Assembly (NCBI GenBank): GCA_977017645.1
Contig: OZ360236.1
Location: 37,944,001-38,008,000 of the forward strand
Direction: 5' to 3'
From: Torpedo marmorata
Taxonomy: Eukaryota
DNA length: 64,000 bases
The notes below the pieces were generated by a model that searched no databases, had not been told where the DNA came from, and was given only the letters and a program-made list of their open reading frames with translations. Shown piece by piece: positions 15,716 through 60,430 of this stretch. The first letter of the stretch is position 1. Each line of letters starts with the position of its first letter. The position numbers and the translations under genes were made by a program.

Positions 15716-15802
15716 GTGTACTGTACTGGCTTCCTTTCCTCTTCCCTCTCCGTCCTGATGCAAGGTCTTAACCTGAAAGGTCATCATCTTCTGCCTCCAC
15801 AG

Positions 15803-17540: not shown

Positions 17541-18433
17541 TTGTTTGCTAGATCATCCGAGATGTCCTCCTTCAAAAAAACACCATTAACTCTGCCCTCA
17601 CCCACATATCCTCCATTAAACCCACACATCTACCCTGGCCCTCTCCGCCCCCACGTGCAACAAGGACTGGACTCCCCTTGTCCTCAGCTACCACTCCACC
17701 AGCCTCCGCATCCAACACATCATCCTCCACTATTTCTGCCACCTTCTACGTGATCCTACCAGCAGACACATTTTCCCTTCTCCCCTCTCCGCTTTACGCA
17801 GGGACCGCTCCCTCCATGACTCCCTTGTACCCTCCTCCCTTCCAACCAATCGCCCCCTTGACACCTACCCCTAAGACTGCAGGAGGTGCTGCACTTACGC
17901 CAACACCTCCTCCCTCAACACCATTTGGAGCCCCAAGCAACGCTTCACGTGAACCTGCAGGAGTCATCTACTGTATCCGATGCTCCCCTTGTGGTCTCCT
18001 CTACATTAGAGAGACTGGACGCAGACTGGGAGATTGTTTCATTGAGCGCATCGGCTCAAAAGCGGGGATCTCTCAGTGGCCACACATTTCAATTCCCCAC
18101 CCCATTCCCTTGCTGACATGTCTGTCCATGGTCTCATGCATTACCAGACTGAGACCACCCACAAGTTGGAGAAACAATACCTCAATATTCTGTCTGGACA
18201 CCCTCCAACTGGATGGCATTAACTGACTTCTCTGGTTTCCATTAGCCCCCCCCCCCCACCACCCCATCTATCCCTATGTCTCCTTTCCTCTAGCTCTATC
18301 TCTCTCTCTCTCTTCTGTTTTTCCTCTGTCTCCTTTACCCAGCTCTGCATTCACAGAGCCAAACACCCACCTCCCCCAATCTATTCTCACCTTTCCTCTC
18401 TCCTCTCCTTATATCCATATCCAATTAACACCT
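17541..18433 (+). mobile_element. Older degenerate PLE 3' fragment (continues at 23899-24130)
   Basis: ORF 17678-18226 contains a decayed GIY-YIG (VIYCIRC...LYIRETGRRLGD); split by the palindromic insertion. Confidence 0.8.
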
Positions 18434-18719
18434 AGTAAAAAACACAAAAGCTGGAGAACTCAGCAGGTCAAACAGTGTCTTTTATGTAGCAAAGGTAGAA
18501 ATACATAACCGACGTTTCGGGCTTGAGCCCTTCATCAAAGTATGAGAAAATGCCGGCAGGCGTCCGAACAAAGGAGTGAGGGGGGAAGGGAGGTGGCAAA
18601 GGCAGGAGATGATAGGTGGAGAAAGGAGGGAGGGGACAGCAGCAAAGAGGGGGAGGAGGGATGGCTGGGTGGGTGGAAAAAAACAGGTGAGGGGGGAGGG
18701 GAAGGGAACAACAAACAGG

Positions 18720-21225: not shown

Positions 21226-21387
21226 CTCCCTACCCCCCTCTCCCACCCTCCTACCTCCCCTACCCCCCACCTCCCCCCTCCGACTCCCTCCAACCTCCCC
21301 CACCCTCCACCTCCCCCCTCTGACCCCCCCAACCCTCCCCCTCCCCCCAACACCCTCCACGACACCGATCCCCACTCTAACCCCTGC

Positions 21388-23568
21388 TTGGTTTTTACTA
21401 TCCCCTCCGACCTTCCCCTCTCTGAGACGGAGCGCTCCGTCCTCAGTAGAGGCCTCACCTTCGTCCCCCTCCGCCCACACCTCAACGAGTTCCGCGCACG
21501 CCATGATGCTGAACTCTTCTTCCGTCGCCTCCGCCTCCGTGCTCACTTCCATGACCGTGATTCTCCACCCCCCACCCTAGACCCTTTCTCCCGCTTCAAG
21601 CCTTCTTCCTCTTCCTGGACACCCCGCCCGGGCCAGCTGCCCGCTCTGGACCTTTTTATTTCCAACGGCCGCCGAGACATCAACCGTCTCAACTTCACCA
21701 CCCCCCTCTCGTATTCCAACCTCACTTCCTCAGAACGCTCTGCCCTCCACTCTCTCCGCAACAATCCCAACCTCACCATCAAACCCGCAGACAAGGGCGG
21801 TGCGGTTGTGGTCTGGCGCACTGACCTCTACCTTGCCGAGGCCAGTCGACAACTCTCAGACACCTCCTCCTACCTACCCCTCCCACAGGACCCCACCACA
21901 GCACATCAAGCCACTGTCTCCAACACCATCTCCGACCTCAGCACCTACGGTCACCTCCCCTCCATGGCCACCAACCTCATTCTCCCCCACCCCCGCACTG
22001 CCCGTTTCTACCTTCTACCCAAGATACACAAACCCAACCATCCGGGCAGACCCATTGTTTCTGCCTGCTCCTGCCCCACCGAACTAGTTTCATCTTACCT
22101 TGACTCCATCTTTTCTCCCCTGGTCCAATCCCTCCCCACCTACATCCGCGACACCTCACATGCCCTCCATCTCCTGAATGACTTCAGATTCCCTGAACCG
22201 GACCGCATCATCTTCACCATGGATGTCCAATCCCTTTATACCTCTATCCCCCACACAGAAGGTCTGAAAGCACTTCGCTTCTTCCTGGACCAAAGACCCG
22301 ACCAGTCACCCTCTACTACCACCCTCCTCCGCCTGGCAGAACTTGTCCTCACTCTCAATAACTTCTCCTTCAACTCATCCCACTTCCTCCAAATCAAAGG
22401 AGTAGCCATGGGTACCCGCATGGGTCCCAGCTACGCCTGCCTGTTTGTGGGCTTTGTGGAGCAATCTATGCTGCAAACCTACACAGGCAAGACCCCTCAT
22501 CTCTTCCTCCGGTATATCGACGACTACATCGGGGCTGCCTCATGCACCCATGATGAGCTTGTCAACTTCATCCACTTCGCATCCAACTTTCACCACGATC
22601 TCAAACTCACCTGGTCCATCTCCGATAACACTCTCCCCTTCCTGGATCTCTCTGTCTCCATCTCGGGAGACAAGCTTTCCACCGACATTTACTACAAACC
22701 CTCCAACTCCCACAACTATCTGGACTACACATCCTCACACCCTGTCCCCTGCAAGGACTCCATCCCCTTCTCTCAATTTCTCCGCCTCCGCCGCATCTGT
22801 TCCCAAGATGAGGTGTTCCACTCCAGATCTTCTGAAATGTCTGCCTTTTTCCACAAACGTGGCTTCCCTTCCACCACCATCAACTCAGCCCTCACCCGCA
22901 TCTCCTCCATTTCCCGCTCATCTGCCCTGGCCCCCTCTGCCCCCAGACGCAACAAACATAGAGTACCCCTCATCCTCACCTACCACCCCACCAGCCTCCG
23001 CGTCCAACACATTATCCGCCGGAATTTCCGGCACTTGCTGCAGGATCCCACCACCAGACACATTTTTCCTTCTCCTCCCCTCTCGGCCTTCCGCAGGGAC
23101 CGCTCCCTCCGCGATTCACTCGTGCACTCGTCCCTCCCCACCCATCGCACCCCCGGAACCTTCCCCTGTGCCCGCAGGAGGTGCAACACCTGCGCCCACA
23201 CCTCCCCCCTCACCACGGTCCAGGGCCCCAAACAGGCCTTCCAAGTGAAACTACACTTCACTTGTACATCCAAAGGACTTATCTACTGCATCCGGTGCTC
23301 CCTTTGTGGCTTTCTATACATTGGAGAGACCGGTCGTAGATTGGGAGACCGCTTTGCTGAGCACCTCCTCTCCGTCCGCAACAACAGCGACCTCCCAGTA
23401 GCCAACCATTTCAATTCTGGGTCACACTCCCACGCTCACATGTCTGTCCATGGCCTCATGTACTATCCCACCCAGACTACCCGCAAATTGGAGGAACAAC
23501 ATCTCATATTCCGTCTCGGCACTCTCCAGCCAGATGGCATTAACATTGACTTTTCTGCTTTCCACTAA
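21388..23568 (+). CDS. PLE RT + GIY-YIG endonuclease, right arm (open frame, 5' truncated)
   Basis: 726-aa frame with the same motifs; only a handful of amino-acid differences from the left arm. Confidence 0.9.
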   Translation: MVFTIPSDLPLSETERSVLSRGLTFVPLRPHLNEFRARHDAELFFRRLRLRAHFHDRDSPPPTLDPFSRFKPSSSSWTPRPGQLPALDLFISNGRRDINRLNFTTPLSYSNLTSSERSALHSLRNNPNLTIKPADKGGAVVVWRTDLYLAEASRQLSDTSSYLPLPQDPTTAHQATVSNTISDLSTYGHLPSMATNLILPHPRTARFYLLPKIHKPNHPGRPIVSACSCPTELVSSYLDSIFSPLVQSLPTYIRDTSHALHLLNDFRFPEPDRIIFTMDVQSLYTSIPHTEGLKALRFFLDQRPDQSPSTTTLLRLAELVLTLNNFSFNSSHFLQIKGVAMGTRMGPSYACLFVGFVEQSMLQTYTGKTPHLFLRYIDDYIGAASCTHDELVNFIHFASNFHHDLKLTWSISDNTLPFLDLSVSISGDKLSTDIYYKPSNSHNYLDYTSSHPVPCKDSIPFSQFLRLRRICSQDEVFHSRSSEMSAFFHKRGFPSTTINSALTRISSISRSSALAPSAPRRNKHRVPLILTYHPTSLRVQHIIRRNFRHLLQDPTTRHIFPSPPLSAFRRDRSLRDSLVHSSLPTHRTPGTFPCARRRCNTCAHTSPLTTVQGPKQAFQVKLHFTCTSKGLIYCIRCSLCGFLYIGETGRRLGDRFAEHLLSVRNNSDLPVANHFNSGSHSHAHMSVHGLMYYPTQTTRKLEEQHLIFRLGTLQPDGINIDFSAFH

Positions 23569-24624: not shown

Positions 24625-27600
24625 TGATATACCTATCAATAACTGACGCGAGTCTAGAAGTGCAGGAATTAACAGGCTTTTATTAACAGAATCAAAGCCA
24701 GGGCTAGCTATGCCTTGACCTGATGATCCCTGCTGGATTGTCCAGGAACTGGGGAGGAGTTGCTGGCTCAAGGCCTTTATTCCAGGTAAAGGGGGAGGGG
24801 TCACCGGGACAGACAGACAGGTCATGGTCATACCTGCCTCAGGCCACAATACATACAAAGTGGTTTACCACATTCACCCCTTCTTTTAGAACAAGTCCGA
24901 CGGGGGGGTGAAGTGGATACTGTAAAAAGAAAAAAATACAAAATACATAGATAATATACAGTTTTTACAGGTCGAGTTTCGCCGGCGGCCGGATTTGCCG
25001 CCGTGACCTGCGTAGCGCCAGCGGTGATGGTAGTGGTTGTGGAATGAGGGTACGAGTGAGAAAACGTGATACCTGCGGAGATGGTTGTGGCTGTGGAATG
25101 GGAGTAGGTACAGTAGGGTGGATCTGGGGCTGGTTCGCCTCCTGCCTGGCTAGTGGCCAGACCAGCTGTGACGGAGACAACGTCGTGCTGGGAGGCGGAT
25201 GGGCCGGAGGGGGCAGCTGCGACCCGGCGTTTCCGCTGTCGGGGACCTCTTCAGACGCTCCTGCAGGCGCCAGGTCCCGTATTGACACCGTGTCTTCCCG
25301 CCCGTCGGGGAGAACCACGAATGCGTACTGCGGGTTTGCATGGATCAGCTGCACCCTCTCGACTAAGGGCTCGTACTTGCTACTCCGAAGATGTTTGCGG
25401 AGTAGCACCGGCCCCGGGGACGTCAGCCAGGCAGGGAGTGTAGTCCCGGTGGTCGATTTTCTGGGGAAGGAAAAGATACGTTCGTGAGGGGTAGTGTTAG
25501 TGGCGGTACATAAGAGAGATCGTATAGAGTGGAGGGCGTCCGGGAGAACCTCCTGCCAGCGAGCCACTGGCCACCCTTTTGCTTTCAGGGCCAGTAGTGT
25601 CGCTGTCCATACTGTGGCGTTCTCCCTCTCCACCTGTCCGTTCCCCCGTGGGTTGTACCCCGTGGTCCTACTGGTAGCGATGCCTCGGGTCTGCAAGTGC
25701 TGTCGCAGCTCCCCGCTCATGAACGCGGACCCCCGGTCGCTGTGGACATAGTTGGGGAACCCGAACACGGTGAAAACCTGGTGGAGAGCCTTGATAGCCG
25801 CCGCCGCCGAGGTATCTGGGCAGGGGATGGCAAAGGGGAACCGCGAGTACTCATCGATGATGTTGAGGAAGTACACATTGCGGTTCGTGGAGGGGAGGGG
25901 GCCCTTGAAGTCTATACTGAGACGTTCGAACGGGCGGGTGGCTTTGACCAGCTGTGCTCTGTCGGGGCGGTAGTACTGCGGTTTGCATTCCGCACAGACT
26001 CGGCAGCTGCTGGTCATGGTCTTGACCTCATCCAGGGAGAAAGGCAGGTTCCGTGCTTTAATGAAGTGAAACAGCCTGGTAACTCCTGGGTGGCAGAGGT
26101 CATTATGTAGGGAGTATAACCGGTCGATCTGCGCGCTGGCGCACGATCCCCGGGATAGAGTGTCAGGGGGCTCGTTGAGCTTCCCGGGCCGGTAAAGGAT
26201 GTCGTAATTGTAGGTGGAGAGTTCTATTCTCCACCTCATGATTTTGTCGTTTTTAATTTTACCCCGCTGCTGGCTGTTAAACATGAAAGCGACGGAGCGC
26301 TGGTCCGTCAGCAGGGTAAAATGTTTTCCGGCGAGATAGTGCCTCCAGTGCCGGACAGCCTCGACAATGGCCTGGGCCTCTTTCTCTACCGCGGAGTGCC
26401 GAATTTCGGGGCCTTGAAGGGTGCGGGAGAAAAACGCTACCGGTCTTCCCGCCTGGTTGAGGGTAGCAGCCAGTGCGAAGTCCGATGCGTCACTCTCTAC
26501 CTGAAAAGGTTCCGACTCGTCCACTGCGTGCATCGCTGCTCGGGCGATGTCCCCTTTTATGAGGTCGAAAGCCTCACGTGCCTCCGCTGCCAGGGGAAAC
26601 TTGGTGGACTTGACGAGGGGTCGGGCTTTGTCCGAGTAGTTTGGGACCCATTGTGCATAATAGGAAAAGAACCCGAGGCATCGTTTAAGTGCTTTGGGGG
26701 TAACGGGGATCGGAAGTTCCAACAGGGGGCGCATGCGGTCGGGGTCGGGTCCAATCACCCCGTTTTCCACGACGCACCCCAGGATAGCGAGTCGGGTAGT
26801 CCCGAACACGCATTTCTCCTTGTTATATGTGAGGTTCAGCGTCTCGGCCGCCTGTAAGAACTTCCGAAGGTTCCTATCGTGATCCTGGCGATCATGACCA
26901 CAAATGGTGATGTCGTCCAGGTACGGGAAGGTGGCAGTGAGCTTGAACTGGTCAATGATCCTGTCCATCTCCCTTTGGAACACGGATACCCCATTTGTTA
27001 CCCCGAAGGGAACGCGCAGAAAATGGAATAATCTGCCGTCCGCCTCGAAAGCGGTGTATACTCGGTCCTCCCGGCGGATTGGGAGCTGATGGTAAGCCGA
27101 CTTAAGGTCGATGGTGGAGAACACTTTATATTGAGCAATCTGGTTGACCATATCCGCGATCTTCGGCAGCGGATAGGCGTCCAGTTGCGTGAACCGGTTG
27201 ATGGTCTGGCTATAGTCCACCACCATCCGGCTCTTAGCCCCGTTCTTTACCACGACTACCTGTGCTCTCCAGGGGCTATTACTGGGTGCAATGATCCCTT
27301 CCCCCAGTAAACGCTGCACCTCCGCCTTAATAAACGCCCTGTCCCCTGTACTGTATCGCCTACTTTTAGTTGCGATGGGCTTACAGTCAGGGGTAAGGTT
27401 GGCGAAGAGTGGCGGGGGTTGGGTCTTTAGTGTGGAGAGACCACAGGTAGTCTGGGGCGTATTAATTAAATACTGGGGGTTAGTCACAACGATTGGGGGG
27501 TGGGGCCCATCATAGTGCATGGTGACGCTACGCAGGTGGCTTTGGAAGTCCAATCCCAGCAATACAGGAGCACACAAACGGGGCATGATTAGCAATGAAA

Positions 27601-29343
27601 ACTCTCGATATTCCGTGCCCTGTACCACTATATTCGCCACACAACCCCCCCGGATGTCTGTTGTGTGCGTTCCAGACGCCATGGCCACCCTCTGGCTTAC
27701 CGGTACAATGGTGAGGCCACAGCGCTGGGCAGTGTCTGGATGGATAAAACTTTCTGTACTGCCTGTGTCGAACAGGCAGGTGGTCTTATGCCCCTCAACG
27801 AGAATGTCCATCATGGATCTGGACAGTTGATGGGGCGCGCTCTGGTCCAGCGTCACGGATGCCAGGGTCGAGACGAAGTCTTGATCTTGATCCGGTGGCA
27901 GCTCCCGTAGCTCGTACGTGTCGCTACGAGAGGGTGGAGTCGGAAGTGCTGGAAGTGCTGCGGTGAGGTTATAAAATGGCCGCGCCGGAAATGTAGAGAT
28001 CGGAAGTGTGGACCAAGATGGCCGCCTCCAGTCCTCACACGAGGTCTCAGCAGGAAGTGATGTCATGTAAGATGGCCGCCTCCTCCCGTCGCACGTGGCG
28101 CTGCTGGAAAACGGAAGTGCTGCGCGCTGTGATGGCTGCCTCCAGACCTCACACGAGGTCTCCGCCGGAAGTGGAGTCGAGTAAGATGGCCGCTCCCGTA
28201 CCTCGCACGCGGCGCTGCTCGGACCCGTGCGCGACTTGGAGCGGCAGACCTTAGCATAGTGGCCTTTCTTGCCACAGCTAGAACAAGTCGCGTCTCGGGC
28301 CGGGTAGCGCTTGCGCGGGTGCTTGTCGAGCCCGCAGAAGTAGCACTTCTCGGGCTCCCGGGTGATAGCGGCGGCGGTTAACTCACGGGTAGCGGCGGGC
28401 TCTCGGGCAGCGGCGGCAGCGGCCAACTCACGGATAGCGTCGGCGGCGGCGAGCGGGTCCCGGTAGACGGCAGCAGCCGTCGCGTTGCTTGTAGGGCTGA
28501 CGGTTGGGGCGATCCAAGAAGCAGGCTGCGCCTGCATAGCGTCGGCGTTCTTTAGGGCTGAGTCCAGATTCAGTATGTTCTGGACAGTCGATTTCAGGGT
28601 CAGATCGGCGTGTTCCAGCAATCGCTGGCGGATGTAGCCCGACCTGATCCCTCTTATGATAGTGTCCCTTGCCAGTATCTCGGAGTGTTGCTCAGCCGTC
28701 AGGGCTCGACAGTCACACGCTCGCACCAGGAGCATCACGTCCTGGATATATTCGGAGACCGACTCTCCGGGTCGCTGGTACCGCTGCGATATCCAGTGCC
28801 TTGCGAAAATCTCGTTCGCAGGCGTCAGGTACAGCGTTCGGAGGGCGACCAAGGCATCATCAAAAGTCCTACAGTCTCTGACGGCGCCATACACTCGCTT
28901 GCTTACCCTGGACATGAGGATATCGAGTTTCTGCTCATCAGTAGCTGCTCCGGACGACCTCATGTAGGCTGTGAAGCAGCGTTGCCAAAGTTCGAAATCG
29001 CTTGCAGCGTCTTGGGCCAGGGGGTCGATGTATAGCTTGTCTGGCTTTAACAAATTCTCCATTGATTCGTATTTTGTTGAAACTGTTAATAAAATTGATA
29101 TACCTATCAATAACTGACGCGAGTCTAGAAGTGCAGGAATTAACAGGCTTTTATTAACAGAATCAAAGCCAGGGCTAGCTATGCCTTGACCTGATGATCC
29201 CTGCTGGATTGTCCCGGAACTGGGGAGGAGTTGCTGGCTCAAGGCCTTTATTCCAGGTAAAGGGGGAGGGGTCACTGGGACAGACAGACAGGTCATGGTC
29301 ATACCTGCCTCAGGCCACAATACATACAAAGTGGTTTACCACA
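24625..29343 (-). mobile_element. Intact Gypsy/Ty3 LTR retrotransposon
   Basis: 248-bp TG...CA LTRs at 24625-24872 and 29096-29343 with about 2 differences. TSD tggtt at 24620-24624 and 29344-29348. PPT aaaagaaggggtgaa next to the 3' LTR. Confidence 0.96.
24965..29062 (-). CDS. Gypsy Gag-Pol polyprotein (Gag zinc knuckles, PR, RT, RNase H, IN)
   Basis: Single open frame with CSSCGKKGHYAKVC, LFDTGS, YLDD, ESDASD, HNDLCH..CRVC and a DDE integrase. Start placed at MENLLK, the first ATG after the LTR. Confidence 0.94.
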   Translation of the reverse strand: MENLLKPDKLYIDPLAQDAASDFELWQRCFTAYMRSSGAATDEQKLDILMSRVSKRVYGAVRDCRTFDDALVALRTLYLTPANEIFARHWISQRYQRPGESVSEYIQDVMLLVRACDCRALTAEQHSEILARDTIIRGIRSGYIRQRLLEHADLTLKSTVQNILNLDSALKNADAMQAQPASWIAPTVSPTSNATAAAVYRDPLAAADAIRELAAAAAAREPAATRELTAAAITREPEKCYFCGLDKHPRKRYPARDATCSSCGKKGHYAKVCRSKSRTGPSSAACEVRERPSYSTPLPAETSCEVWRQPSQRAALPFSSSATCDGRRRPSYMTSLPAETSCEDWRRPSWSTLPISTFPARPFYNLTAALPALPTPPSRSDTYELRELPPDQDQDFVSTLASVTLDQSAPHQLSRSMMDILVEGHKTTCLFDTGSTESFIHPDTAQRCGLTIVPVSQRVAMASGTHTTDIRGGCVANIVVQGTEYREFSLLIMPRLCAPVLLGLDFQSHLRSVTMHYDGPHPPIVVTNPQYLINTPQTTCGLSTLKTQPPPLFANLTPDCKPIATKSRRYSTGDRAFIKAEVQRLLGEGIIAPSNSPWRAQVVVVKNGAKSRMVVDYSQTINRFTQLDAYPLPKIADMVNQIAQYKVFSTIDLKSAYHQLPIRREDRVYTAFEADGRLFHFLRVPFGVTNGVSVFQREMDRIIDQFKLTATFPYLDDITICGHDRQDHDRNLRKFLQAAETLNLTYNKEKCVFGTTRLAILGCVVENGVIGPDPDRMRPLLELPIPVTPKALKRCLGFFSYYAQWVPNYSDKARPLVKSTKFPLAAEAREAFDLIKGDIARAAMHAVDESEPFQVESDASDFALAATLNQAGRPVAFFSRTLQGPEIRHSAVEKEAQAIVEAVRHWRHYLAGKHFTLLTDQRSVAFMFNSQQRGKIKNDKIMRWRIELSTYNYDILYRPGKLNEPPDTLSRGSCASAQIDRLYSLHNDLCHPGVTRLFHFIKARNLPFSLDEVKTMTSSCRVCAECKPQYYRPDRAQLVKATRPFERLSIDFKGPLPSTNRNVYFLNIIDEYSRFPFAIPCPDTSAAAAIKALHQVFTVFGFPNYVHSDRGSAFMSGELRQHLQTRGIATSRTTGYNPRGNGQVERENATVWTATLLALKAKGWPVARWQEVLPDALHSIRSLLCTATNTTPHERIFSFPRKSTTGTTLPAWLTSPGPVLLRKHLRSSKYEPLVERVQLIHANPQYAFVVLPDGREDTVSIRDLAPAGASEEVPDSGNAGSQLPPPAHPPPSTTLSPSQLVWPLARQEANQPQIHPTVPTPIPQPQPSPQVSRFLTRTLIPQPLPSPLALRRSRRQIRPPAKLDL

Positions 29344-30915: not shown

Positions 30916-31715
30916 CTGAACTTCATGAAGATGAATTAAAATATTTTAAATTCATTGTATTTGTTTTTAATTATTTGTTGCTGTACTGAGGCCACCAATT
31001 ATTTATTTTTATATTACCGTAACTATTCCGAAGGTTTTAAATGCTTTGCTGTTCTTTATAGGTTAGTTGTGTCCACATCTTTTGTTTCAAATACGTCAAA
31101 TGCTGCGGACAGAACTAGGACAAGTGCCTAGAAACTGGATTTCGCCCTGGTACATTGAACGAGTGCGATATTGTGCCGACACACAAAAGCTGACCTGTGT
31201 GTTTCTCTGCAGATTGCTGAAGAGATCGCAGTTACTGCATATTTATTACTAGGAATCATGGGAAGCAGGTCACAGCCTAATATTACTCTCTCCATGGTGG
31301 CTTCAGTACAGCCACAGAAAAGGTTGAGGCAAGAAAGATGGGATACATCTTCAATATCTGTGGCCACAACCCCCTACAATTTCTGAGCAGTTCAAATCCC
31401 AGGCCATGAGTTGCCCCAGATCACTCTGCTGGGACTGCTGTGTGAGCCTCTACAGTGTATAGCCACAACAAATACTGAGACCCAGTAATGTCACATGACA
31501 TATACAGAGCATTAAAAACTCAGGCTGGTAACAGCAGATAGTTAAATGTTGATATTCTTGTAGACTTTCTGCAGGATCTGATTCTTCTTTTTCAAAAAGA
31601 AGGCTGTAGACTGCACATAGTCAATAGAGTTATAGAGTCATACATCACAAGCATCACCTATGGCCTACCATATCTATACCAACCATTGAGTACCTATAAA
31701 TATATATATATTTAT

Positions 31716-34180
31716 CATATAGACCTATTTCATTATTAAATGTAGATTATAAAATAATGGCAAAAATTCTAGCAAACAGAATGGCTAAATATTTGCCAGA
31801 TTTGATACATATAGACCAAGCTGGTTTAATTAAAAATAGATATTCAAAGGATAATATAGCTAGATTAATTAGTTTAATTAGTTTGCATAAAAAGAAACAA
31901 GATTTACCATTAGTTGTAACATTAGACGCTGAAAAGGCTTTTGATAGATTAGAATGGAATTTTTTATTTAAGGTATTAGAAAAATTTGGTTTTGGAAATA
32001 CATTTATAAACTGGATTAAAACTATATATAAAGAACCATCAGCTAAAGTAATTACAAATGGACAAATATCGCCAAAATTTTCTTTGACACGTTCTACGAG
32101 ACAGGGATGTCCCCTGTCACCAGCTTTATTTGTTTTGGCGATAGAACCCTTTGTTGAAGTAGTTAGAAAAGATCCTAAAATAGTGGGTATTAAAGTTGGT
32201 ATGGAAGAACATAAGATTAGTTTGTTCGCAGATGATGTATTGATATATATGACAAAATCTATTATATCACTTCAACAACTATCTATTATATTAAGAGAAT
32301 ATGGTGAAATATCTGGATATAAAATTAATTTGGATAAAAGTGAAATAATGGCTTTATCTCAAGGTGATTACACTAGATGTAAAGAAATTACACAATTTAA
32401 ATGGGCTAAAGAAGGAATTAAATATTTGGGGGTTAAGGTTGATACAAAATTGGAAAATTTATATAAATTAAATTATCTACCATTATTTGTGAAAATAAAG
32501 AAAGATTTAGAGAATTGGAAAGACTTACCCATAACTTTAATGGGAAGGGTAAATTGTATTAAAATGAATATTTTTCCAAGAGTTCAGTATCTTTTTCAAT
32601 CAATTCCTTTTGGAATTCCTCAAAAATTTTTTAAAGATTTAAATTTTATTATTAGGAAATTTTTATGGAAAGGAAAGTTAGCAAGAGTAAGCATGGAAAA
32701 GTTAACCTGGAATTATGAGATGGGTGGATTGCAACTTCCTAATTTTCAAAATTATTATAAAGCAGCTCAATTAAAATTTGTCAATGAATTTTTTGATTCA
32801 ACTAAATCTTCTGCTTGGATTAAAATAGAATTAAATAATATAGGAGAAAATCTTAAAGAAGAAATTATTTATAAATGGGATTCTAAATTAATATTATTAA
32901 AAAAGAAAAATTCACCGATTATTAAACATTTGTTAGAAATATGGGGTAAGACGAATAAAGAGATAGGTGGAAGAGGATTAATTTCTTCAAATATGCCATT
33001 ATATCAAAATGGACTTATATCATTTACTGTTTATAATCAGTTACTTAAAATTTGGTTTCAAAAAGGTATTAAGAAGATTAATGATTGTTTTGAAGCTGGA
33101 AAATTTATTACGTTTCAAAGAATGAAAGATAAATTTAATATACCAGATAATACATTTTTAGCTTATTATCAAGTTAAAGCTTTTTTGACTGAGAAATTAG
33201 GTTATGCTTTGATTTTACCAAGACAAAATGAATTAGAATTATTAGTTACTAATGGAGATGTTAATAAATTTATTTCTCAAATGTATAAATTGTTTCAGAG
33301 GAAAATGCCTAAAATAGGATTGCATAAATCAAGATTAAAATGGGAATTAGATTTAAATGTAAATATAGATGAAAATCACTGGAAAGATTTATGTAAGTTA
33401 AGTATGACGAAAATTATTAATGTTAGATATAGATTAGTACAATATAATTTCTTTCATCAATTATATTTAACACCTAAAAAATTAAAGAAATTTAATCCGA
33501 CATTATCAGGACTATGTTTTAGATGCAATAATGAGGAAGGTTCTTTTGTTCATTCTACATGGTTTTGTCCAAAGATTCAAGATTTTTGGTTGAAAGTTTA
33601 AAAAATTTTAGATAAAATATTTAATATTACATTTCCAATGGATCCTATGTTATTTTTATTTGGAGATATTAAAAAATTTAGTATTAAAAAGAAATTAAAT
33701 ATGATTCAAGTAGAATTTTTTCGAATTGCTTTAGCTGTTTCGAAAAAATGCATTGCTATTACTTGGAAATCTGATTTAGATTTAGGATTAGAAAGATGGC
33801 ATGCAGAGCTCCGTTCGTGTATACCACTGGAAAAAATTATTTATAATTTACGTAATAAATATCATTTCTTCTTGAAAATTTGGAGCCCATATATGAGAGC
33901 TGTGGGTTTAAGGATCTGAAGATCTCTAGATATCGGATCTACTGGCATATTTGACCTCCGTAATAGAATTAGTTTATAGATGATATTCCCCTTATTCTAT
34001 CTTTTTCTTTCTTTCCTTTTTCTATTTTTACTTTTATTTTATATTACTAGATTAGTGGGGATGGGGGGGTTGGGGAGGGGAGGGAGGGTGGGGGGGTGAA
34101 AATGTATCACATGTATTTTGATAATTTTATATTTTATCTTATGTATTTTGTGATTTAAAAGTTTAAATAAAATAAAAAAA
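31716..34180 (+). mobile_element. 5'-truncated young L1 (RT through 3' UTR)
   Basis: ORFs 31757-33601 and 33638-33919 are separated by one frameshift; A tail; flanked by aaatatatatata..tttat repeats at about 31698 and 34181. Confidence 0.92.
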
Positions 34181-48008: not shown

Positions 48009-48660
48009 GTGAATTAGTTGACTTCTATACAGAATCTGACATGATTACATTTCTTAATTTATTTAGTATGTTTAGCTTGCAGTGAATTTTCCTATTTTGA
48101 CCAAGTTGGTATCACAATAGTTAGGAAGGAAAGGTGTGAAATTATTGTTTAGGGAAATGAGTACCTCACAGATGGGTCAAGCAATAAAGATTTGTCAAGC
48201 TTAGCTCCTTCTTTATCTGAAATGTCTCCCTCCTCATTTAATCTCATTTGATGCCCCAATGCAGTTTTATCTTTTAAAGAAATGTTGTTTTAAAATATGA
48301 AACACAAGGGAAAAAAATGTGTACAACCAAGACCCACAAACGCTAGTGAGATATATAACTAGATGATTTGTTATTGTGACAGAGCATTCCAAGTGTTCTT
48401 ACTGAAAGGTTAACCTATTTTATATACCTATGTCACTGGAGAGTGCTTTTATAAAATGCTCATTCTTTAATGACAATTAACACTTGAAACCTTACCACTT
48501 TTACAAATCAGTATTCCATTAAATGTGTCCTGTAATAGGGTATTTTTGAGCGCCTTCGTAAAAATAACTCCATTTGTTTTTGCTGGTAATCATCAATTTT
48601 GTGCAGACTTTCAGCTACGAATGTGCTTTAAGTACAAAATGCTTTAAGTCGTAAGGTTAT

Positions 48661-51600
48661 TATAAGTAACGGTGACTTCGCTCCACCAATAGTCACCTGG
48701 AGGCTAAGTGTGGTCCTTGCTTTTGACGCGTTTTAATTAATTTACTAACAAAGTCCAATATGTTCAAAAACCTTTATTTTCACACATGACTTGCAGTAAT
48801 CTTCAATGACTTTAATATAAACAGTTCTTGTAAACGATGTATAATGAGTTCCTTTAAATTATTCCTTAAACAATTCCAAAACGATATGAAACACTGTAGA
48901 TGATGTTAAAGTTATAAAAACATTATAACTCGATATAAAACGGTATAAAACGGTCAATAAAGATGTGGAGACCAGACTCACCCCCCATACATCTCTATCC
49001 TTTCTTTGTTCTCTCTCTCTAATGGTTCTGCGCATGCTCCAACGCGCATACTACAATTCCCAGCCTCCCACGCGCACTATGACGTCACTCTATACTGCGC
49101 ATGCGCCCGTCGGCACTCCAGCGCATGCGCAGAGCACAGAACGGGCCGATAGCGGCCCGCAGACAATGCAAGCGCTCCGAACGGGCCGAGGACGGCCCAG
49201 CAACATCCACAACAACTACGCGGCGCTCCAAGGCCCGACAAGACATCGGAGCGCCGCAACAACGGTAAGTAAACGAGCCTACGGCTCTTACACCGGCCCC
49301 TAATTATTATAATTAGACGTAATGTCTTGAATAATAATTACACTATAAATTATAAATAACAATAACCATAATATTCAAAACAATACAAATCTTCTTTCTT
49401 CCTTCTTCATAAATCTAGAGTTTACCATAACTCTGATTCAACAAAAGTCTGTAACCTGTGAAATGTACAACAACAAATAAAGTCAGTTTACATTTATCAA
49501 AGTTCCTCTGTCTCCAACAAAAGGCAGACCTTATTAATAGGTCTGTTTAGAAAACCAGTCTTAGTTTTAATTCGCACTTGACGCACAAGTCCTCTTTGTC
49601 TTGAAAAGTCTCAATAATCTTTTCCAAGTAACCAGGAATTTCTTGAAGTTGAACCATCCATAACAATCACAATGTCTCTTTAAAGTTCTTTTATCTTCAA
49701 ATCCGAGTCAAAACGTTAACCAGTAAACCTCAAATCCTCCTCAGATAAAATAGATACAGTTTTTCTTTTGAATTTAACACAAGGCACTTCTTCAGCACGT
49801 CGTTTCACTTTATTCCTTTCTTCAGTATTCCACTTCTCATGTGAAAAATTTAAACTCTTAGAATTAGAATTTGAATATTTATCTGATTCTTTCGATTTTA
49901 AACAGGTCTGTTTAACCACTCTGGTTTCTATTGCTCTTTCCTGCAATTCTAAATCCAATTTCGCAATTTTCAATTCAGTCTTAGCTCCTTCCGAGAAATT
50001 AATAATTTGATCTGAAGTCAAAATATCATGCGATACATTGATAGTTCCATTGTCAATCCTGTTGCGGTATACTTGAAATTTTTTAATTTCTTCGTCTTGC
50101 TTGTTACATTTCTGCAATGCAATTTCACATTCTTTCTGCATTGTTAATTGTTGAACATTCAATTTACATTCTTGATTGGTTTTAAAAGTTAACTGTTTTG
50201 TGTTATTAACCAATAACTTGATCTCTTTCAAAACATTAATCTCTTCCTCCAACCTTTTACATTTTGATAATGCTGAATCTCTTTCCTCAATAACTGTATT
50301 CATTTCTTCAGCAGTTATTCTTTTCTTCCGCTTTCTGACTTTGCGAGTTTTACTTACAATTAAATCTTTCTGTTTACTGTTTTCTTGATTATCTAATATT
50401 TCCAATTCCCCTTTCAACATTTTGTTCTCTGGATTCAATTGCATTAAATTATCATTCACATTATTCTTTATTCCATCAGCACAATTTTCTGTGTTTTCCA
50501 GTTTTACATCACGTTGCAATATTTCTTCATTAGCTTTGTCTGTTGTAATCTCTGAACTACAAAATCTACATTCAGATTTGTTTTCAGTCACTTGTTTTAT
50601 TCCTGTATCTGATTCAATTACACATGAATGATCAATAGTATTATTTGCAATATCTTCTAATACTTCACTTTCATCCATTTCTGACGAAATTAATTCCTTT
50701 AATGTTGTTTTAAATACCATTGATTTATTTTCACATTGATCTGTTTTCTTTTCTTCATAAGTGATTTTCTTATTCACGGTTTTTTGCTCTTCTCTTAACT
50801 CTTCAAATTTCTCAACTGAAATTTTATTAACATTTATCGCTACCTGTTCCTGAGCAATATCATTATTTCTTTCCATTGGTCCATTGATTGCCCAACCAAG
50901 TATGGTTCTAATAGCGTAAGGTCCATTCCTTTTACTTTCTATTACTTCTTTTGGTACCAAAACCTTTGGCACATCTGAACCAATCAGCATTTCTATTTCA
51001 GAATTAATTTCAGGTAAATAAACCTTCCACAGATAAGCTAAATGATGGATATCACTTTGATGAGGAATATTTCCTTCGTTCACAGGCATAGTCTTCTGAG
51101 TATATACACTTGGAAGATCACAAAATTTTTTGTCATCCAATCCAGCAACCTCTAAGCCTGAAACAATGTTAGTTTCAACAACCTTTTCTTGTCCCATGGT
51201 TTTTAACATAATTCTTGATTTTCTTCCTTGAATATTAAGTTTATTCATTAGTCCTTCCGTGCAAAAAGATGCAGTGCTACCTGGGTCTAGAAATGCATAT
51301 GTTTTTACTATTGCATCCCCTTTCTTGGCCTTAACTTGTACAGGCACTATTGAAAGTTTGCAGTTATTCACCCCGGCCCCAGTAAGACCACTTGTCTGAA
51401 CCGAGGTTATAACATTATTTTCTGTTGTTTCCTTTTCCAATTCTTTGTTTCTGTTTTGGACATGCAAAATTCTAGGATGTTTAAAATTGCATATGTCACA
51501 ATTAATTCGCTTCTCACAGTTTTTACTGATGTGCCCTTTACACAGACAGCTAAAACATATTCCATTTTCCTTTAAGAAAGCGATCCTTTCTTTATGTTCC

Positions 51601-54471
51601 TTCCTTTCCAATTGTAAACACATTTCCAAAGCATGTCCACCTTTACAGAACAAACAACTCTTTTCATTAGGCAAACTTTCCTTTTCCTTATTTATTTTGT
51701 CCTTTTCTTTACTTATAACTTGCACATTAGTAGCAAAAGTACTCCTTTTCACTTTCGGACTAGACTGTGAATTAGACTTCCTTACATCTTTGCTCATTGA
51801 ATTATCTCTGGTATTTCCATATAGTGGATCTGTTTCAACATACACTTGTCGTTCAAGAAAATTTACCAAATCCTTTAAAGTAATTCTTCGACCATAATTT
51901 ACTTGTAAATCACAAGCCAAATTTCTCCATCTATCCCATACCTTGTAAGGTAATTTTTCTAAAATGATTCGCATATTACTATGCACATCAAGCTCACGAA
52001 TACCATCGATTTCTTCCATAGCATTACAACATCCTCTTAAAAACAAAGTATATTCTTACAAAGCCTTTACATCATTTTGTTTTATTGACGTCCATTTAAG
52101 AGCTTTATCCATATAAGCTAAAGCAATTCGATGTTTGTTGCCAAAATATTGTTCCAATAAATCCTTAGCTTTATCTAATCCTCTTCCTGAAGACATTTGA
52201 TTACAACTTTTAACCAGTTCCTTTGGATGTCCCTTTGTGAACATTTCCAAATAATAAAGACATTCATCTCGATCTTGGCATTTATCTTCAATATTGCGTT
52301 TGAAAGATCTCATAAACGATTGATATTGAAGTGGATCACCATCAAAAGTTTGTATCTCTTTCTTGGGTAAAGAAGAGAGAGACTGTAACTAAAACAATGA
52401 TGCAGCAATTTCATTTTGTCTTTCCTTGGATGACAATACATTGCTCTGTTCACTGTCTCGTGTTGTATGCAACGTATTTGGAAACCTTACTGGTGTAGTT
52501 TCTTCCATATTTCTGATGCTTGGCTCACATAACAAAGAATTTACTTCGTTCGATTGGACCCAATCCGCAGCTTTGCTTTCAGATGTTACTAATGGTACAT
52601 GTGACTCGATACCAATATGCTCGTGAAAGGTTTGTCCTTGTATATGTAAGTTTTGTATCCTTGGTTCTAAAATATCTATTTTTTTGGTTGGTTTCTTTTC
52701 CTGTGACTCTTTTTTTAAATATGACCTTTTATTATCAGACACTTTAGATAATTTACTTCGAACGCCAGATACTATTGAGCCTTCTATTGCTTTCTTTTCT
52801 GCCTTGGCAATAGCAATATTTGTTTTCAGCTCATGCTGCTCTTTTCTCTTTCTTAGCTGCTCTTGTTTCTTTCTTAGTTCCTCCTCCTGTTCTTCTAAAA
52901 CATGTTTATCCTTAAGAAATTCTTGTTGTGCAAGAAGAGCGGCCAATTTAACATCAACCTTTGTACGTGACGATGCAGAACTTGAAGTACGAGAAACTCT
53001 GGAGCTTGAACCAGAACTTCTTTTGCTTCTCCTGCTTTCAGCATTTGAGACACTGTCACTTGCTTGTATTTCGTCCTGCAGTTCATATGTTGTCTTCATA
53101 CTTACCTCTTTATCCAATTCAAATTGTTCATCATTTGTTGACACAATTTCAGCCATTTCCAAGTTATATTCTTGTTCAACTAATGAAGCTGCCTCTTCAT
53201 CCTTTGCCAGCTTCAATCTTTCAATAAGAACCTTTTTATTTCCACTTATGTCCTTTTTCAGTCGCTTCAATTCTTCTTTAATATCCGCAACCTTCATGTC
53301 TTCAATACGTTGGTCCTCAACAGCAACATCAGCGGTTGCTGCGTCAGCTGCTGATAAATCAGTAGCTGCTGTATCAGTGGCTGCTGCGGCCATTTTACTC
53401 GTCTTGTTCCTCTTTCCTTCAAGCATACACAACACTAGTCAAACAACAGTCCCCAATGGACCAGCGGCAGCAATTCCAATCTGTGTTCTTACTTGCTAAA
53501 GATACACAGAAGGAGTCCACAGACTTATGCCTACCACTTCTAATGACTGTAATGTGCTGCAATCCTTAAACGAGTTTCAACCACAACATCCGTCACTAAT
53601 ATCACTGATTTTCCAAAAATAGTTTCTCCAACGTATTTATAGGACACTTTACTATAAGATTTGAAGCTTTAAATCACTCTCTGGCTGTTATTCATGGCAG
53701 ATGGATGTAGATTACAAACTGCCCCCAACTCGAGGCATCTCCAAAATGGCCACCAATTTATATCAGTTCAAAGCACAGAGAGTTTTTTCTATCTTCTTTC
53801 CTTCAAACTTCTGTTCCAAACAGCCAGCCCTTTATTGACTATAAGTAACGGTGACTTCGCTCCACCAATAGTCACCTGGAGGCTAAGTGTGGTCCTTGCT
53901 TTTGACGCGTTTTAATTAATTTACTAACAAAGTCCAATATGTTCAAAAACCTTTATTTTCACACATGACTTGCAGTAATCTTCAATGACTTTAATATAAA
54001 CAGTTCTTGTAAACGATGTATAATGAGTTCCTTTAAATTATTCCTTAAACAATTCCAAAACGATATGAAACACTGTAGATGATGTTAAAGTTATAAAAAC
54101 ATTATAACTCGATATAAAACGGTATAAAACGGTCAATAAAGATGTGGAGACCAGACTCACCCCCCATACATCTCTATCCTTTCTTTGTTCTCTCTCTCTA
54201 ATGGTTCTGCGCATGCTCCAACGCGCATACTACAATTCCCAGCCTCCCACGCGCACTATGACGTCACTCTATACTGCGCATGCGCCCGTCGGCACTCCAG
54301 CGCATGCGCAGAGCACAGAACGGGCCGATAGCGGCCCGCAGACAATGCAAGCGCTCCGAACGGGCCGAGGACGGCCCAGCAACATCCACAACAACTACGC
54401 GGCGCTCCAAGGCCCGACAAGACATCGGAGCGCCGCAACAACGGTAAGTAAACGAGCCTACGGCTCTTACA
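48661..54471 (-). mobile_element. Non-autonomous BEL/Pao LTR retrotransposon
   Basis: 632-bp LTRs at 48661-49292 and 53840-54471, apparently identical. TSD gttat at 48656-48660 and 54472-54476. PPT aggggccgg. BEL-type Gag Cys-His array and protease; integrase C-terminal remnant at about 49500-49700. Confidence 0.92.
49716..53392 (-). pseudogene. BEL Gag-protease fused to a MIPOL1-like coiled coil; two in-frame stops
   Basis: ORFs 52389-53435, 52056-52313 and 49716-52046 are in one frame. Motifs: FDGDPLQY, CLFC..H..C, CFSC..GH..C, CDIC..H..LH, FLDPGSTASF. No RT or RNase H motifs. Confidence 0.85.
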
Positions 54472-54659
54472 GTTATTGTTGGTAGACAGGACCATCCGAG
54501 CGACATCTCATTTTCCTAGACCCTGGACTATTGAGCAACTTATAGCATTCCCAAGAGGATGATCACCCAATCATTTTCTGATCCATGATCTTGACAAGCA
54601 AAAATCTGTACTGCGACCTTCAGCTCCCAAAATTTACTGCCTCAAAATATTTATTACAT

Positions 54660-56091: not shown

Positions 56092-59000
56092 CCATAGAAC
56101 CATAGAACACTACAGCACAGAAAACAGGCCATTCGGCCCTTCTAGTCTGTGCCGAAACATCATACCGCTAGTCCCACTGACCTGCACCCATTCCATAACC
56201 TCTCCCATCCATGTATCTATCTAATTTATTCTTAAAACTTAAGAGTGATCCCGCATTTATCATGTCAGATGGCAGCTCGTTCCACACTCCCACCACTCTC
56301 TGAGTGAAGAAGTTACCCCTAATGTTCCCCCTAAACCTTTCACCTTTCACCCTAAAGCCATGTCCTCTTGGATTTATCTCTCCTAATCTAAGTGGAAAGA
56401 GCCTACTCGCATTTACTCTGTCTATACCCCTCATAATTTTGTAAACCTCTATCAAATCTCCCCTCATTCTTCTACACTCCAAGGAATAAAGTCCTAACCT
56501 GTTTAATCTTTCCCTGTAACTCAACTCCTGAAGACCCGGCAACATCCTAGTAAATCTTCTCTGCACTCTTTCAATCTTACTGATATCCTTCCTGTAGATA
56601 GGCGACCAGAACTGCACACAATATTCCAAATTTGGCCTCACCAATGTCTTATACAACCTCACCATAACATCCCAACTCCTATACTCAATACTTTGATTTA
56701 TGAAGGCCAAGATGCCAAAAGCTTTCTTTACAATTCTGTCTACCTGTGATGCCACTTTCAGGGAATTATGTATCTGTATTCCCAGATCCCTTTGTTCCTC
56801 CGCACTCCTCAGTGCCCTACCATTTACTGTGTATGTCCTACCTTGCTTTGTCCTTCCAAAATGCAACACCTCACACTTGTCTGCATTAAATTCCATCTGC
56901 CATTTTCTGGCCCATTTTTCCAGTTAGTCCAGATCCCTCTGCAAGCTTTGAAAGCCTTCCTCGCTGTCCACAATGCCTCCAATCTTAGTGTCATCAGCAA
57001 ACTTGCTGATCTAATTTACCACATTATCATCCAGATCATTGATATAGACAACAAACAACAATGGTCCCAGCACCGATCCCTGAGGCACACCACTAATCAC
57101 AGGCCTCCAGTCTGAGAAGCAATCATCCACTACCACTCTCTGTCTTCTCCCATTCAGTCAATTTCGAATCCAGTTTATAACCTCTCCATGGATACTTAGT
57201 GTCTGAACCTTCTGAATTAACCTCCCATGTGGGACCTTGTCAAAGGTTTTACTAAAGTCCATGTAGACAACATCTACAGCCTTTCCTTCATCTACCTTCT
57301 TGGTAACCTCCTCGAAAAACTCTATAAGATTCATTAAACATGACGTGCCACGCACAAATCCATGCTGACTATCCTTAATCAGCCCTTGACTGTCCAAATA
57401 CTTTTATATCCGATCTCTTAGAACACCCTCCAATAATTTACCCACTACTGATGTCAGGCTCACCGGCCTGTAATTTCCTGGTTTACTTTTGGAGCCTTTT
57501 GTCAACAACGGAACAATATGAGTTACCCTCCAATCCTCTGGCACCTCACCCGTGGCTAAGGACATTTTAAATATTTCTGCCAGGGCCCCTGCAATTTCTA
57601 CACTAGTCTCCCTCAAGGTCTGAGGGAATATCATGTCAGGCCCGGGGGATTTATCTACCTTTATTCGCTGTAAGGCAGCAAGCACCTCCTCCTCTTTAAT
57701 CTCTATATGTTCCATGACACTACTGCTTGTTTCCCTTCCTTCCATATACACTATGCCAGTTTCCTGAGTAAATACTGATGCAAAAAAACTGTTTAAGATC
57801 TCCCCCATCTCGTGAGGCTCCACACATAGATGACCACTCTTATCTTCTCGGGGACCAATTTTGTCCCTTACTATCCTTTACATTATCTGCCAAAGCAACC
57901 TCATGTCTTCATTTTGCCTTCCTTATTTCCTTCTTAAGTATTTTCTTACATTTTCTATACTCTTCTAGTACCTCATTTGCTCCTTGTTGCCTATACCTGC
58001 TATACACCTTTCTTCTTCTTAACCAGATCGCCAATATCCCTTGAAAACCAAGGTTGCCTATGCCTGTTAACTTTGCCTTTAATCCTGACAGGAACATGCA
58101 AACTCTGCACTCTCAAAATTTCGCCTTTGAAGGCCTTTCACTTACTGAACACATCCTTGCCAGAAAACAAATTATCCCAATCCACTCTTCCAAGATCCTT
58201 TCTCATTTCCACAAAATTGGCCTTTCTCCAATTTAGATTCTCAACTCGAGGACCAGACCTATCCTTATCCATAATTAACTTGAAACCAATGACATTATGG
58301 TCACTGGACCCCAAAATGTTCGCCTACACATACTTCTGTCACCTGACCTGTCTGGTTCCCTAATAGGAGATGAAGTATTGCATCCTCTCTCGTTGGTACC
58401 TCTATATATTGATTTAGAAAACTTTCCTGAACACATTTGACAAACTCCAAGCCTTCCAGCCCTTTTACAGTATGGGAGTCCCAGTCAATATGTAAAAAGT
58501 TAAAATCTCCTACTATCACAACTTTCTGTTTCTTACATCGGTCTGCTATCTCTCTACAGATTTGCTCTTCCAATTCTCTCTGACTATTGGGCAGTCTATA
58601 ATACAACCCTATCAGTGTGGTCACACCTTTCCTGTTCCTCAGCTCCACCCATATGGCCTCTGTAGACGAGCCCTCTGGGCTGTCCTGTCTAAGCACAGCT
58701 GTGATATTTTCCCTGACTAGCAATGCCACTCCTCCCCCTTTCATCCCTCCCCCTCTATCACATCTGAAACAATGGAACCCCGGAACATTAAGCTGCCAGT
58801 CCTGCCCCTCCTGCAACCAAGTCTCACTAATAGCAATAATGTCGTAATCCCACGTGCCAATCCATGCCCTAACCTCATCTGCCTTTCTGACAATACTCCT
58901 TGCATTGAAATAAATACACCTGAGAATATTTCTATCACATACAAACCTTTGATTTCTGTCTATACATGCAGTTCTCGCATGACCTTTATCCTCCTCCACC

Positions 59001-60430
59001 TTACTATCTGCTCTAACACTCTGGTTCCCATCTCCCTGTCAATCTAGTTTAAACCCCCCCGGAGCAGCACAAGCAAACCTACCCGCAAGGATGTTAGTCC
59101 CCCTCCAGTTCAGGTGCAAACTGTCCCGTCGGAACAGGTCCCACCTTCCCTGGAACAGAGCCCAATTGTCCAGAAACATGAAGCCCTCCCTCCTGCACCA
59201 TCTCTTTAGCCACGTATTTAGCTGCATTAACTTCCTATTTCTAGCCTCACTAGCACGTGGCACGGGTAGCACTCCTGAAATCGCAACCCTGGAGGTCCTG
59301 TCCTTCAGTTTTGCACCTATCTCCCTAAACTCTCTTTGCAGGACCTCCTCATTCTTCCTACCCACGTCATTGGTCCCTACATGGACCACGACATCTGGCT
59401 GCTCACCCTCCCTCCTGAGAATACCAAGAACCCGATCCAAGATATCATGGACCCTGGCACCAGGGAGGCAACAGACCATCCGGGATACTCGATCTCTCCC
59501 ACAGAACCTCCTATCTGTCCCGCTATCGAATCCCCTATCACTACTGCTCTCTTCTTTTCCCTCCTACCTTTCTGAGCTGAGGGTCCAGACTTGATGCCAG
59601 AGACGTGACCAGAACAACTTGTCCCTGGTAGGTCGTCCCCACCAACAGTATCCAAAACGGTATACTTATTGTTGATGGGAACGGCCACAGGTGTGCTCTG
59701 CTCTCTCTGTCTATTCTCCTTCCCTCTCCTGACAGTCACCCGGCTACCTGCCTCCTGACCTTTGGGGGTGACTGTCTCCCTGAAACTCCTCTCTATCACC
59801 CCCTCTGCCTCTCGAATGATCCGGAGTTCATCCAGCTCCAGCTCCAGTTCCCTAACTCAGTTTGTCAGGAGCTGCAGCTGGATGCACCTTTTGCAGGTGT
59901 AGTCATCAGGGACAATTGTGCTGTCCCAGATTTCCCACATCCCGCAATCGGAGCAATCCACTGCCCTAACTGACTCCATTACCTACTCCTAATTTAATTA
60001 AAGGATTAAATTACCTCACGTCCTTACCTCACTGGAAGCAAGCTCGTCCTCAGCCTCTGCTCGCCGAAGCCTCTCGAGCCAAAGCCTCAAAGCTCCACTC
60101 CTACACTGGGCCACTCACACACTGGCCGCTCCTCTTCAGCTTCCCCTCCTTTTATTTGTCCCTGCCAATTATCTCAAGTACTCACTCCCACAAATCAACA
60201 CTCTGTTTAACCCTTCAGTTACCCTCCTCGCTCTTTTTAAAACTCACTCACCCAGACTGGTTCCCTACACTCACCGCTCTCCCGAGTCCTTTGTCTGCGA
60301 TGGCCCCGAGATCGCAATGGCCTGAGTCACTGCTCCTTTTAAAACAGCTCACTCACCTAGGCTGGTTCCCTCCACTCACCGCTCTCCTGAGTTCTTCGCT
60401 CCTCCTCTGTCTGCGACGGCCCCGAGATCA
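56092..60430 (-). mobile_element. Near full-length CR1 LINE (ORF1 with SGNH esterase; ORF2 APE + RT), disrupted
   Basis: ORF1: VIGDS, PGARV, VHVGTND, LHLN. ORF2: FNARSI, SETW, GDFN, DFSKTFDKV, LEYCVQFWSP. (ttctatgg)n tail; about 100-bp tandem unit in the 5' UTR at 60236-60430. Confidence 0.92.

Follow-up and report, generated by a model that had tools for sequence, protein, structure and literature searches.

A BEL/Pao retrotransposon family of the electric ray Torpedo marmorata with spliced fragments of three host genes in place of pol, one of them likely derived from a circular RNA

We analyzed a window of 64,000 nucleotides from Torpedo marmorata (assembly GCA_977017645.1, contig OZ360236.1, positions 37,944,001 to 38,008,000 of the forward strand), which carries a BEL/Pao-type element on its minus strand (window positions 48661-54471, delimited by a pair of long terminal repeats (LTRs) and a target-site duplication (TSD)). 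In this element, the place of pol is taken by pieces of BRCA1, MIPOL1, and Elongin A (ELOA), all spliced, in sense orientation, in their native frame, and fused to Gag-protease. This architecture is virtually certain. Judging from the sequences, the element probably represents a chimeric BEL/Pao family in which three spliced host fragments were swapped for pol, the MIPOL1 one likely from a circular RNA (circRNA), and which spreads by means of helper elements.

The region downstream of the protease matched MIPOL1 in all four phmmer hits, the best being that of Narcine bancroftii (E 3.0e-32). BLASTP gave an E-value of 8e-37 and a second alignment (E 4e-9) to MIPOL1 in permuted order (50061-49917). 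A generic coiled-coil match was rejected, since only MIPOL1 proteins match and the exon-level DNA identity to the host is 78-94%. Older, better-preserved copies of the element were retrieved by a MIPOL1 search of the genome. In these copies, the sequence upstream of MIPOL1 is BRCA1 (5 of 5 matches, E 5.8e-75) and the one downstream is Elongin A (6 named matches of 7, E 1.1e-54, and also PDB 8oev). Each host gene was located once in the genome, with introns (MIPOL1 in C40, BRCA1 in C61, ELOA in C41). In the window copy, the insert starts with a BRCA1 mRNA fragment in which two host exons are joined colinearly (50360-50788, 70-79% nucleotide identity to the host exons), followed by MIPOL1 exons f (3' part), g, and h, spliced together (50062-50363, 79-86% identity). 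A non-colinear junction then leads from the end of exon h to the start of the upstream exon b (50061-50062, placed by codon match to older copies). The 5' part of exon b and exon c follow, with an in-frame deletion between them (49917-50061). The last piece is an Elongin A mRNA fragment with remnants of two exons (about 49700-49917), in which the fusion open reading frame (ORF) ends (stop at 49716-49718). Hence, MIPOL1 makes up only a third of the insert. Pfam named nothing in the insert, nor in MIPOL1 reference proteins, and among 1.84 billion protein representatives we found 34 matches, none of which had its best stretch spanning two host pieces.

The earlier note on this window had proposed that an intronless MIPOL1 mRNA fragment was captured in frame with Gag-protease at 50066-50445. 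The MIPOL1 match is indeed far above chance, the peptides quoted are present in the window ORF, and the exon comparison showed that the insert spans host exon junctions. Two further host genes and the non-colinear exon order of MIPOL1 had been missed. MIPOL1 starts inside the proposed interval, near 50363, and runs past its end point, in permuted order, to 49917. The LNPEN stretch (50438), previously taken for MIPOL1, aligns to BRCA1, as does everything from 50788 to about 50360.

In the old copies, BEL gag, protease, and the start of the reverse transcriptase (RT) are followed by BRCA1 (four exons, spliced), MIPOL1, the first 17 nt of an LTR, ELOA (five exons, spliced), and the BEL tail. About 3.2 kb of pol were exchanged for about 2 kb of spliced host sequence, with both LTRs retained. 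The BRCA1 and ELOA pieces are colinear and their outer breakpoints lie inside exons. The mean identity to host exons is 92.5% in 29 old copies, which were picked by best MIPOL1 or ELOA match and are thus biased to good preservation, and 81.9% in 33 derived copies. The latter comprise the window copy, four copies at the host MIPOL1 locus, eight near the window copy, and 20 from 28 Mb of a single contig, C1 (every fifth of its first 100 matches). The 17 nt between MIPOL1 and Elongin A correspond exactly to the start of the old LTR, from its TG (e.g., L140:5594 and L143:5613, oriented). They may record a nested insertion or the end-joining of two separately captured elements, and because of them the capture would probably have taken more than one step.

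Some copies and proteins add details on these captures. Upstream of MIPOL1, two variant copies (L149:1391-1676 in C31 and L150:1304-1678 in C5) have BRCA1 joined to a 5' segment of the large Elongin A exon, which suggests that a longer Elongin A capture once existed. Three codons absent from the host BRCA1 (C61:25488548) are present in old copies (L139:4556-4625) and in the Narcine protein; the BRCA1 capture may be older than this host deletion. The RING family is missing from the Pfam list precomputed for a Narcine BRCA1 isoform model. Residues 1-185 of this isoform presumably resemble a retrotransposon Gag, possibly through mis-annotation.

The permuted order of the MIPOL1 exons bears on the nature of the captured RNA. 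The host exons are ordered a-b-c-d-e-f-g-h-i (labels of this analysis) across about 318 kb, and the copies carry f (from nt 48), g, and h, followed by b and c and by 18 nt of d. In the host, exon h ends at a GT donor, and exon b offers a pair of AG acceptors spaced by 3 nt. In 28 of the 29 old copies, the end of exon h is joined exactly to the upstream acceptor of exon b. Exons b to h total 777 nt, or 780 nt with the upstream acceptor, so that the h-to-b junction is in frame. Only exons b, c, d, f, g, and h were found in the copies. No match to exon a or i was present in 30 annotated loci, and a protein search of the genome with exon i returned the host gene only. We consider it likely that the MIPOL1 piece was copied from a back-spliced circular RNA, because both sides of the junction sit on a splice donor and a splice acceptor, the defining mark of circRNA-derived pseudogenes.

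This reading has competitors, the stronger being a linear RNA whose order was permuted by trans-splicing or exon repetition, or by an earlier tandem duplication of exons b to h, with the same element and the same selection on the frame. Trans-splicing or a since-lost duplication would yield the same h-to-b junction, which weighs against the circular origin. Moreover, at about 590 nt the capture falls short of a full turn of the 777-780-nt circle and thus does not demonstrate rolling-circle copying. Inverted repeats in the flanking introns of MIPOL1 are no commoner than direct ones (59 vs 64), a comparison that is uninformative on circularization. We nevertheless find a linear source unlikely: within the 322.8 kb separating exons a and i, exons b to h are each present as a host exon a single time, so that a present-day tandem duplication is rejected for this interval; listings of exonic circRNAs from MIPOL1 exist for mouse (PMC9888537) and human (PMC8783515); and back-splicing is the common source of such non-colinear junctions (PMC4897178). 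That the junction is a template switch within a linear MIPOL1 mRNA, falling on exon ends by chance, is very improbable, even if the element has many template-switch-like deletions and both exon ends have an AG dinucleotide, since the two sides share just 2 nt and lie exactly on splice sites whereas the other host-gene breakpoints lie inside exons.

Two further observations concern MIPOL1. One copy (C42:9563886-9564965) has the h-to-b unit repeated in tandem within an open frame of 459 codons. Within the introns of the host gene (C40:64322176-64645000) lie four copies with the MIPOL1 insert, along with two BEL relatives that have RT.

To characterize the evolution of the insert, we scored variants against the host bases, exon by exon, and counted each distinct variant once. 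Variants common to at least three derived copies comprised 148 nonsynonymous (N) and 59 synonymous (S) changes and no stops, whereas those private to one copy comprised 150 N, 47 S, and 12 stops. The difference in stops (0/207 vs 12/209) is significant (p=4e-4) and was unchanged in a subset of 25 copies, with the eight nearest removed, and without CpG sites. The substitution spectrum predicts 11.6 stops in 199 lineage substitutions (P(0)=6e-6). Shared rearrangements also preserve the frame. The capture junctions are in frame in 12/14, 28/29, and 21/23 old copies, the five large deletion junctions of the derived copies in 31/31, 32/33, 32/32, 30/31, and 28/32, and the two deletions common to old copies in 13/13 and 5/5. 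For comparison, private indels are multiples of three in only 2 of 22 cases in derived copies and 16 of 71 in old ones. The N/S ratio of the insert is nonetheless near neutral (2.51 shared vs 3.19 private, p=0.31) and amino-acid constraint was not significant in any of the three host pieces (p=1, 0.46, 0.19). The adjoining protease, in contrast, is under purifying selection (N/S 88/64 vs 86/28, p=0.004; stem branch p=0.001). With no shared stops, shared deletions in frame, and a near-neutral N/S, selection has very likely kept the frame of the insert open, with no detected constraint on the host peptides.

One could argue that the host-derived tail keeps its frame open by a protein function of its own, such as interference with MIPOL1, BRCA1, or Elongin A of the host, or oligomerization of its coiled coil within the particle. 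A frame of about 340 codons is open in 19 of 31 derived copies and in 25 of the 30 nearest copies, the N/S ratio is slightly below that of private variants in all lineage classes, and pairwise dN/dS among copies is 0.38-0.84. The excess over the matching helper clade (about 20-fold, see below) would also fit. Such a function is doubtful, as the three pieces lack significant constraint next to a constrained protease. In addition, the successful lineage has lost the greater part of the Elongin A piece along with portions of MIPOL1 and BRCA1, and the derived insert has drifted toward A/T richness (G>A 56, C>T 45, and C>A 27 of 199 lineage substitutions). The MIPOL1 coiled-coil function put forward previously is not supported, in view of these deletions and of the near-neutral N/S of the MIPOL1 piece (2.57 shared vs 3.47 private, p=0.46). 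The comparison of dN/dS among copies, proposed along with it, gave values below one in five pairs, set against an N/S near neutrality. We also think it improbable that the element has in its Gag-protease-BRCA1-circMIPOL1-Elongin A fusion an adaptive protein whose tail, put together from two mRNAs and a circular RNA, enables a defective retrotransposon to out-replicate its helper about twenty-fold and to seed more than 10,000 partial host-gene copies, with possible small-RNA cross-silencing of BRCA1, MIPOL1, and ELOA.

Several observations weigh against selection on the open frame alone. Variants found in exactly two derived copies (21 N, 9 S) include two stops. The within-lineage N/S (2.19 vs 3.25, p=0.16) leaves room for weak amino-acid constraint, as do the pairwise dN/dS values, computed without transition correction. 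Among old copies, four stops are each present in three copies (three of them at host CpG sites), as is one 2-nt deletion. Many younger copies have their terminal stop about 12 codons further upstream, and a stop precedes the integrase tail. The window copy has two private stops in gag, yet identical LTRs; RNA bearing stops may still be mobile, or these stops may have arisen in or after the last round. Finally, microhomology-driven deletions in coding DNA may somewhat favor in-frame outcomes. It is scarcely credible, however, that a few master copies handed the open frame down by chance, without selection: the copies are related, so that shared variants are not independent draws, and the sample is small, but with distinct variants counted once we found no stop in about 200 where 11.6 were expected, and all large shared deletions are in frame.

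Outside of the insert, the window copy has the structure of a BEL/Pao element (all features on the minus strand), in agreement with the earlier note. Its LTRs, at 53840-54471 (5') and 48661-49292 (3'), have 632 nt, start with TGT, end with TA rather than the usual CA, and are identical, with 0 mismatches. They are flanked by the TSD GTTAT on the 5' side (54472-54476) and on the 3' side (48656-48660) of the element. The primer-binding-site position (53817-53839) is identical over its 23 nt in the autonomous copy L127, and the polypurine-tract position (49293-49303) precedes the 3' LTR. The gag region (51500-53393) encodes a SAP domain at the start of Gag (PF02037, E 1.4e-8, 53211-53306), also present at the start of Gag in the autonomous helpers L127 and L129, a DUF1759 domain (PF03564, E 1.2e-5), and zinc knuckles at 51656 and 51557. 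The aspartic protease region (50784-51400) has an LDPGS motif at 51290, and similarity to the helper stops at 50784. A weak DUF1758 match (E 0.015) was found in the helper only. The BEL tail (49304-49678, 97% identical to L127) comprises an untranslated remnant of the integrase C-terminus and the 3' untranslated region (UTR). The element has three successive ORFs in the same frame (349, 110, and 779 codons, the last at 49716-52055), separated by two in-frame stops in gag (52389-52391 and 52056-52058). Both stops are sense codons in the 15 relatives checked (15/15) and are thus private to the window copy, which therefore does not encode the full fusion. The frame downstream of the protease is open, as noted previously, and RT, RNase H, and integrase have no Pfam match in the 779-codon window ORF, nor in the chimeric copy L099. 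Having LTRs, TSD, and Gag-protease and lacking RT, RNase H, and integrase, the window element is a non-autonomous BEL/Pao derivative.

The family is large. A 19-nt junction of the founder had 250 exact matches in the genome and a degenerate 26-nt junction of the derived copies had 10,013, both being lower bounds, whereas the reversed controls had none. A one-off nested insertion in the window copy is rejected, as many copies bear the same junctions. An exact 26-nt RT motif of the matching autonomous clade was found 490 times, giving a rough ratio of derived chimera to helper clade of 20:1, with other BEL clades also present (6,618 Peptidase_A17 candidates). The helpers seem intact: five of eight autonomous loci have a single ORF of 2,043-2,134 codons, and RT, Peptidase_A17, and integrase are present in L127 and L129, the two that were scanned. 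The window 5' LTR is 95-97% identical to the LTRs of five young autonomous copies. Six of eight young chimeric copies have one open ORF (1,193-1,330 codons), and seven of eight have LTR identities of 99.1-99.9% (the eighth was not resolved by self-search). From these young LTR pairs and the 10,013 junction matches, we conclude that the chimera went through further rounds of retroposition. The data support what the earlier note anticipated: transduction of a spliced host RNA in frame with Gag-protease, a long propagation in trans with a recent move of the window copy, many copies (at least 10,013) with the same insert, and an autonomous partner with the same LTR, whose ORF has about 2,050 codons.

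Helper and chimera have exchanged sequence. The LTR, 5' UTR, N-terminal part of gag, and tail of the window copy are about equally close to helpers (mostly 95-99%) and to chimeric relatives, whereas the C-terminal part of gag and the protease track the chimeras (98-99% vs 93-97% to helpers). In a protease tree of 52 copies (19 were omitted for short coverage), the derived chimeras form a ladder with young helpers nested inside, and a single chimera clade is rejected (p-AU 3.5e-11). Segment identities and tree thus show that LTR and gag sequence was exchanged between the two, in either direction, and co-packaging would be its cause. Of 18 public sequencing runs listed as matching, none of them on record as RNA, four from four other organisms were compared with the element, two covering all 30 bins (419 and 562 contigs) and two covering 24 and 25 bins thinly. 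Among the matches listed, contigs bridge the back-splice junction (two contigs), the BRCA1-MIPOL1 junction (one), and the MIPOL1-ELOA junction (one). The family is therefore probably common to related species.

These data fit a capture of the host RNAs once, inside particles, by template switches of the reverse transcriptase between co-packaged cellular RNAs, as in the model set out in the accessible text of PMC5131818. The MIPOL1 template would likely have been a back-spliced circular RNA. The short homology at two of the switch points, only 2-3 nt at BEL-BRCA1 and at BRCA1-MIPOL1, weighs against this scenario. At the Elongin A-BEL switch point, a comparison made without the original donor element left about 20 nt with no assigned source. 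The chimera would then have been mobilized by RT and integrase of the helper, likely through co-packaging with it. The host pieces may act as translatable filler, if RNAs translated to near their 3' end replicate better. Since a stop right after the protease would still yield Gag-protease, the position of the stop is probably the selected property. The most likely benefit would be an escape from nonsense-mediated decay (NMD) together with the delivery of Gag-protease to the RNA encoding it. NMD against long 3' UTRs would be the simplest cause, with an apparent retroviral precedent (PMC2925335 and PMC5580461), and delivery in cis, after the example of mouse IAP 1-Delta-1 (PMC6466679), its companion. 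We lean only slightly toward NMD or cis delivery as the cause of the selection on the frame.

Related systems share parts of this organization. In the acutely transforming retroviruses, host coding sequence replaces pol in frame, giving helper-dependent gag-onc fusions in which the host protein is selected for its function. Here, unlike in these viruses, the host peptides are without detectable constraint and the element is without env. Maize Bs1 occurs in low copy number. It is also an LTR element with transduced segments of three host genes and a chimeric ORF (PMC13317346 and PMC5131818, accessible parts). It differs in being a plant element with one piece out of frame and discussed as a new chimeric gene, and the accessible text of PMC13317346 mentions no back-spliced piece. 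Mouse IAP 1-Delta-1, as described in the available text of PMC6466679, is a non-autonomous element with an in-frame internal loss and a Gag fusion ORF, which uses helper proteins in trans, outnumbers its helper among new insertions, and has a fusion reported to act in cis. In contrast to our family, it is a class II endogenous retrovirus with a gag-pol deletion and no host sequence, and cis action was shown there and is inferred here.

The closest precedents are captures by LTR elements in animals. Tan et al. 2016 (PMC5131818, main text) described LTR-mediated retroposition, including a locus in mouse that combines four genes with an Alu, and a mosquito case flanked by BEL18_AG. As in our family, host mRNA takes the place of part of the internal ORF between two LTRs, in sense and often in frame, and there are multi-gene chimeras and further rounds as non-autonomous elements. 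The cases in that main text are single loci or few copies and circRNA is absent from it, whereas our family numbers at least 10,000 copies, and its many successive subfamilies were under selection on the frame; their supplementary tables could hold cases of higher copy number. Dong et al. 2016 (PMC4897178) reported circRNA-derived pseudogenes of mouse circRFWD2 associated with MMERVK10C, in 33 high-confidence copies. These have in common with our family a non-colinear junction at splice sites, an LTR-element context, and multiple copies of one capture. Our counts exceed theirs, with no fewer than 10,013 copies and a further 250 exact matches to the junction, and the MIPOL1 piece is, unlike circRFWD2, fused in frame to Gag-protease, placed between two other genes, and still moving. 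In the accessible literature on circRNA pseudogenes with LTRs, circMIPOL1, BEL/Pao capture, multi-gene LTR chimeras, and electric-ray repeats (including bioRxiv 2025.06.08.657570), queried without ever combining the three gene names, we found no description of the family. The ingredients are known singly (LTR capture including by BEL, a three-gene chimera, circRNA retrocopies, cis-acting fusions), and we did not find their combination and scale reported.

A likely circRNA copy would thus have become a permanent part of an active vertebrate retrotransposon, in no fewer than 10,000 copies, some 300-fold more than in the largest case of PMC4897178. Capture inside LTR particles would offer a route for the retrotransposition of circRNA, which is an open question. 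Thousands of dated copies also provide a natural experiment to separate selection on translation from selection on protein sequence in non-autonomous elements. In practice, gene prediction and read mapping for BRCA1, MIPOL1, and ELOA will go astray in these fishes because of the copies, which would amount, in order of magnitude, to 1% of the 6.2-Gb genome if mostly full length.

The window contains other elements. A Gypsy-like ORF of 1456 codons, open and with protease, RT, RNase H, and integrase, lies at 24965-29335 (minus strand). ORFs with Penelope-like RT and weak GIY-YIG matches lie at 14123-23568. Two of these have the same RT score and are on opposite strands, which suggests an inverted duplicate. 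Fragments of LINE-type RT and endonuclease were found at 31700-33601 (plus), 4036-4659 (minus), and 58301-59038 (minus).

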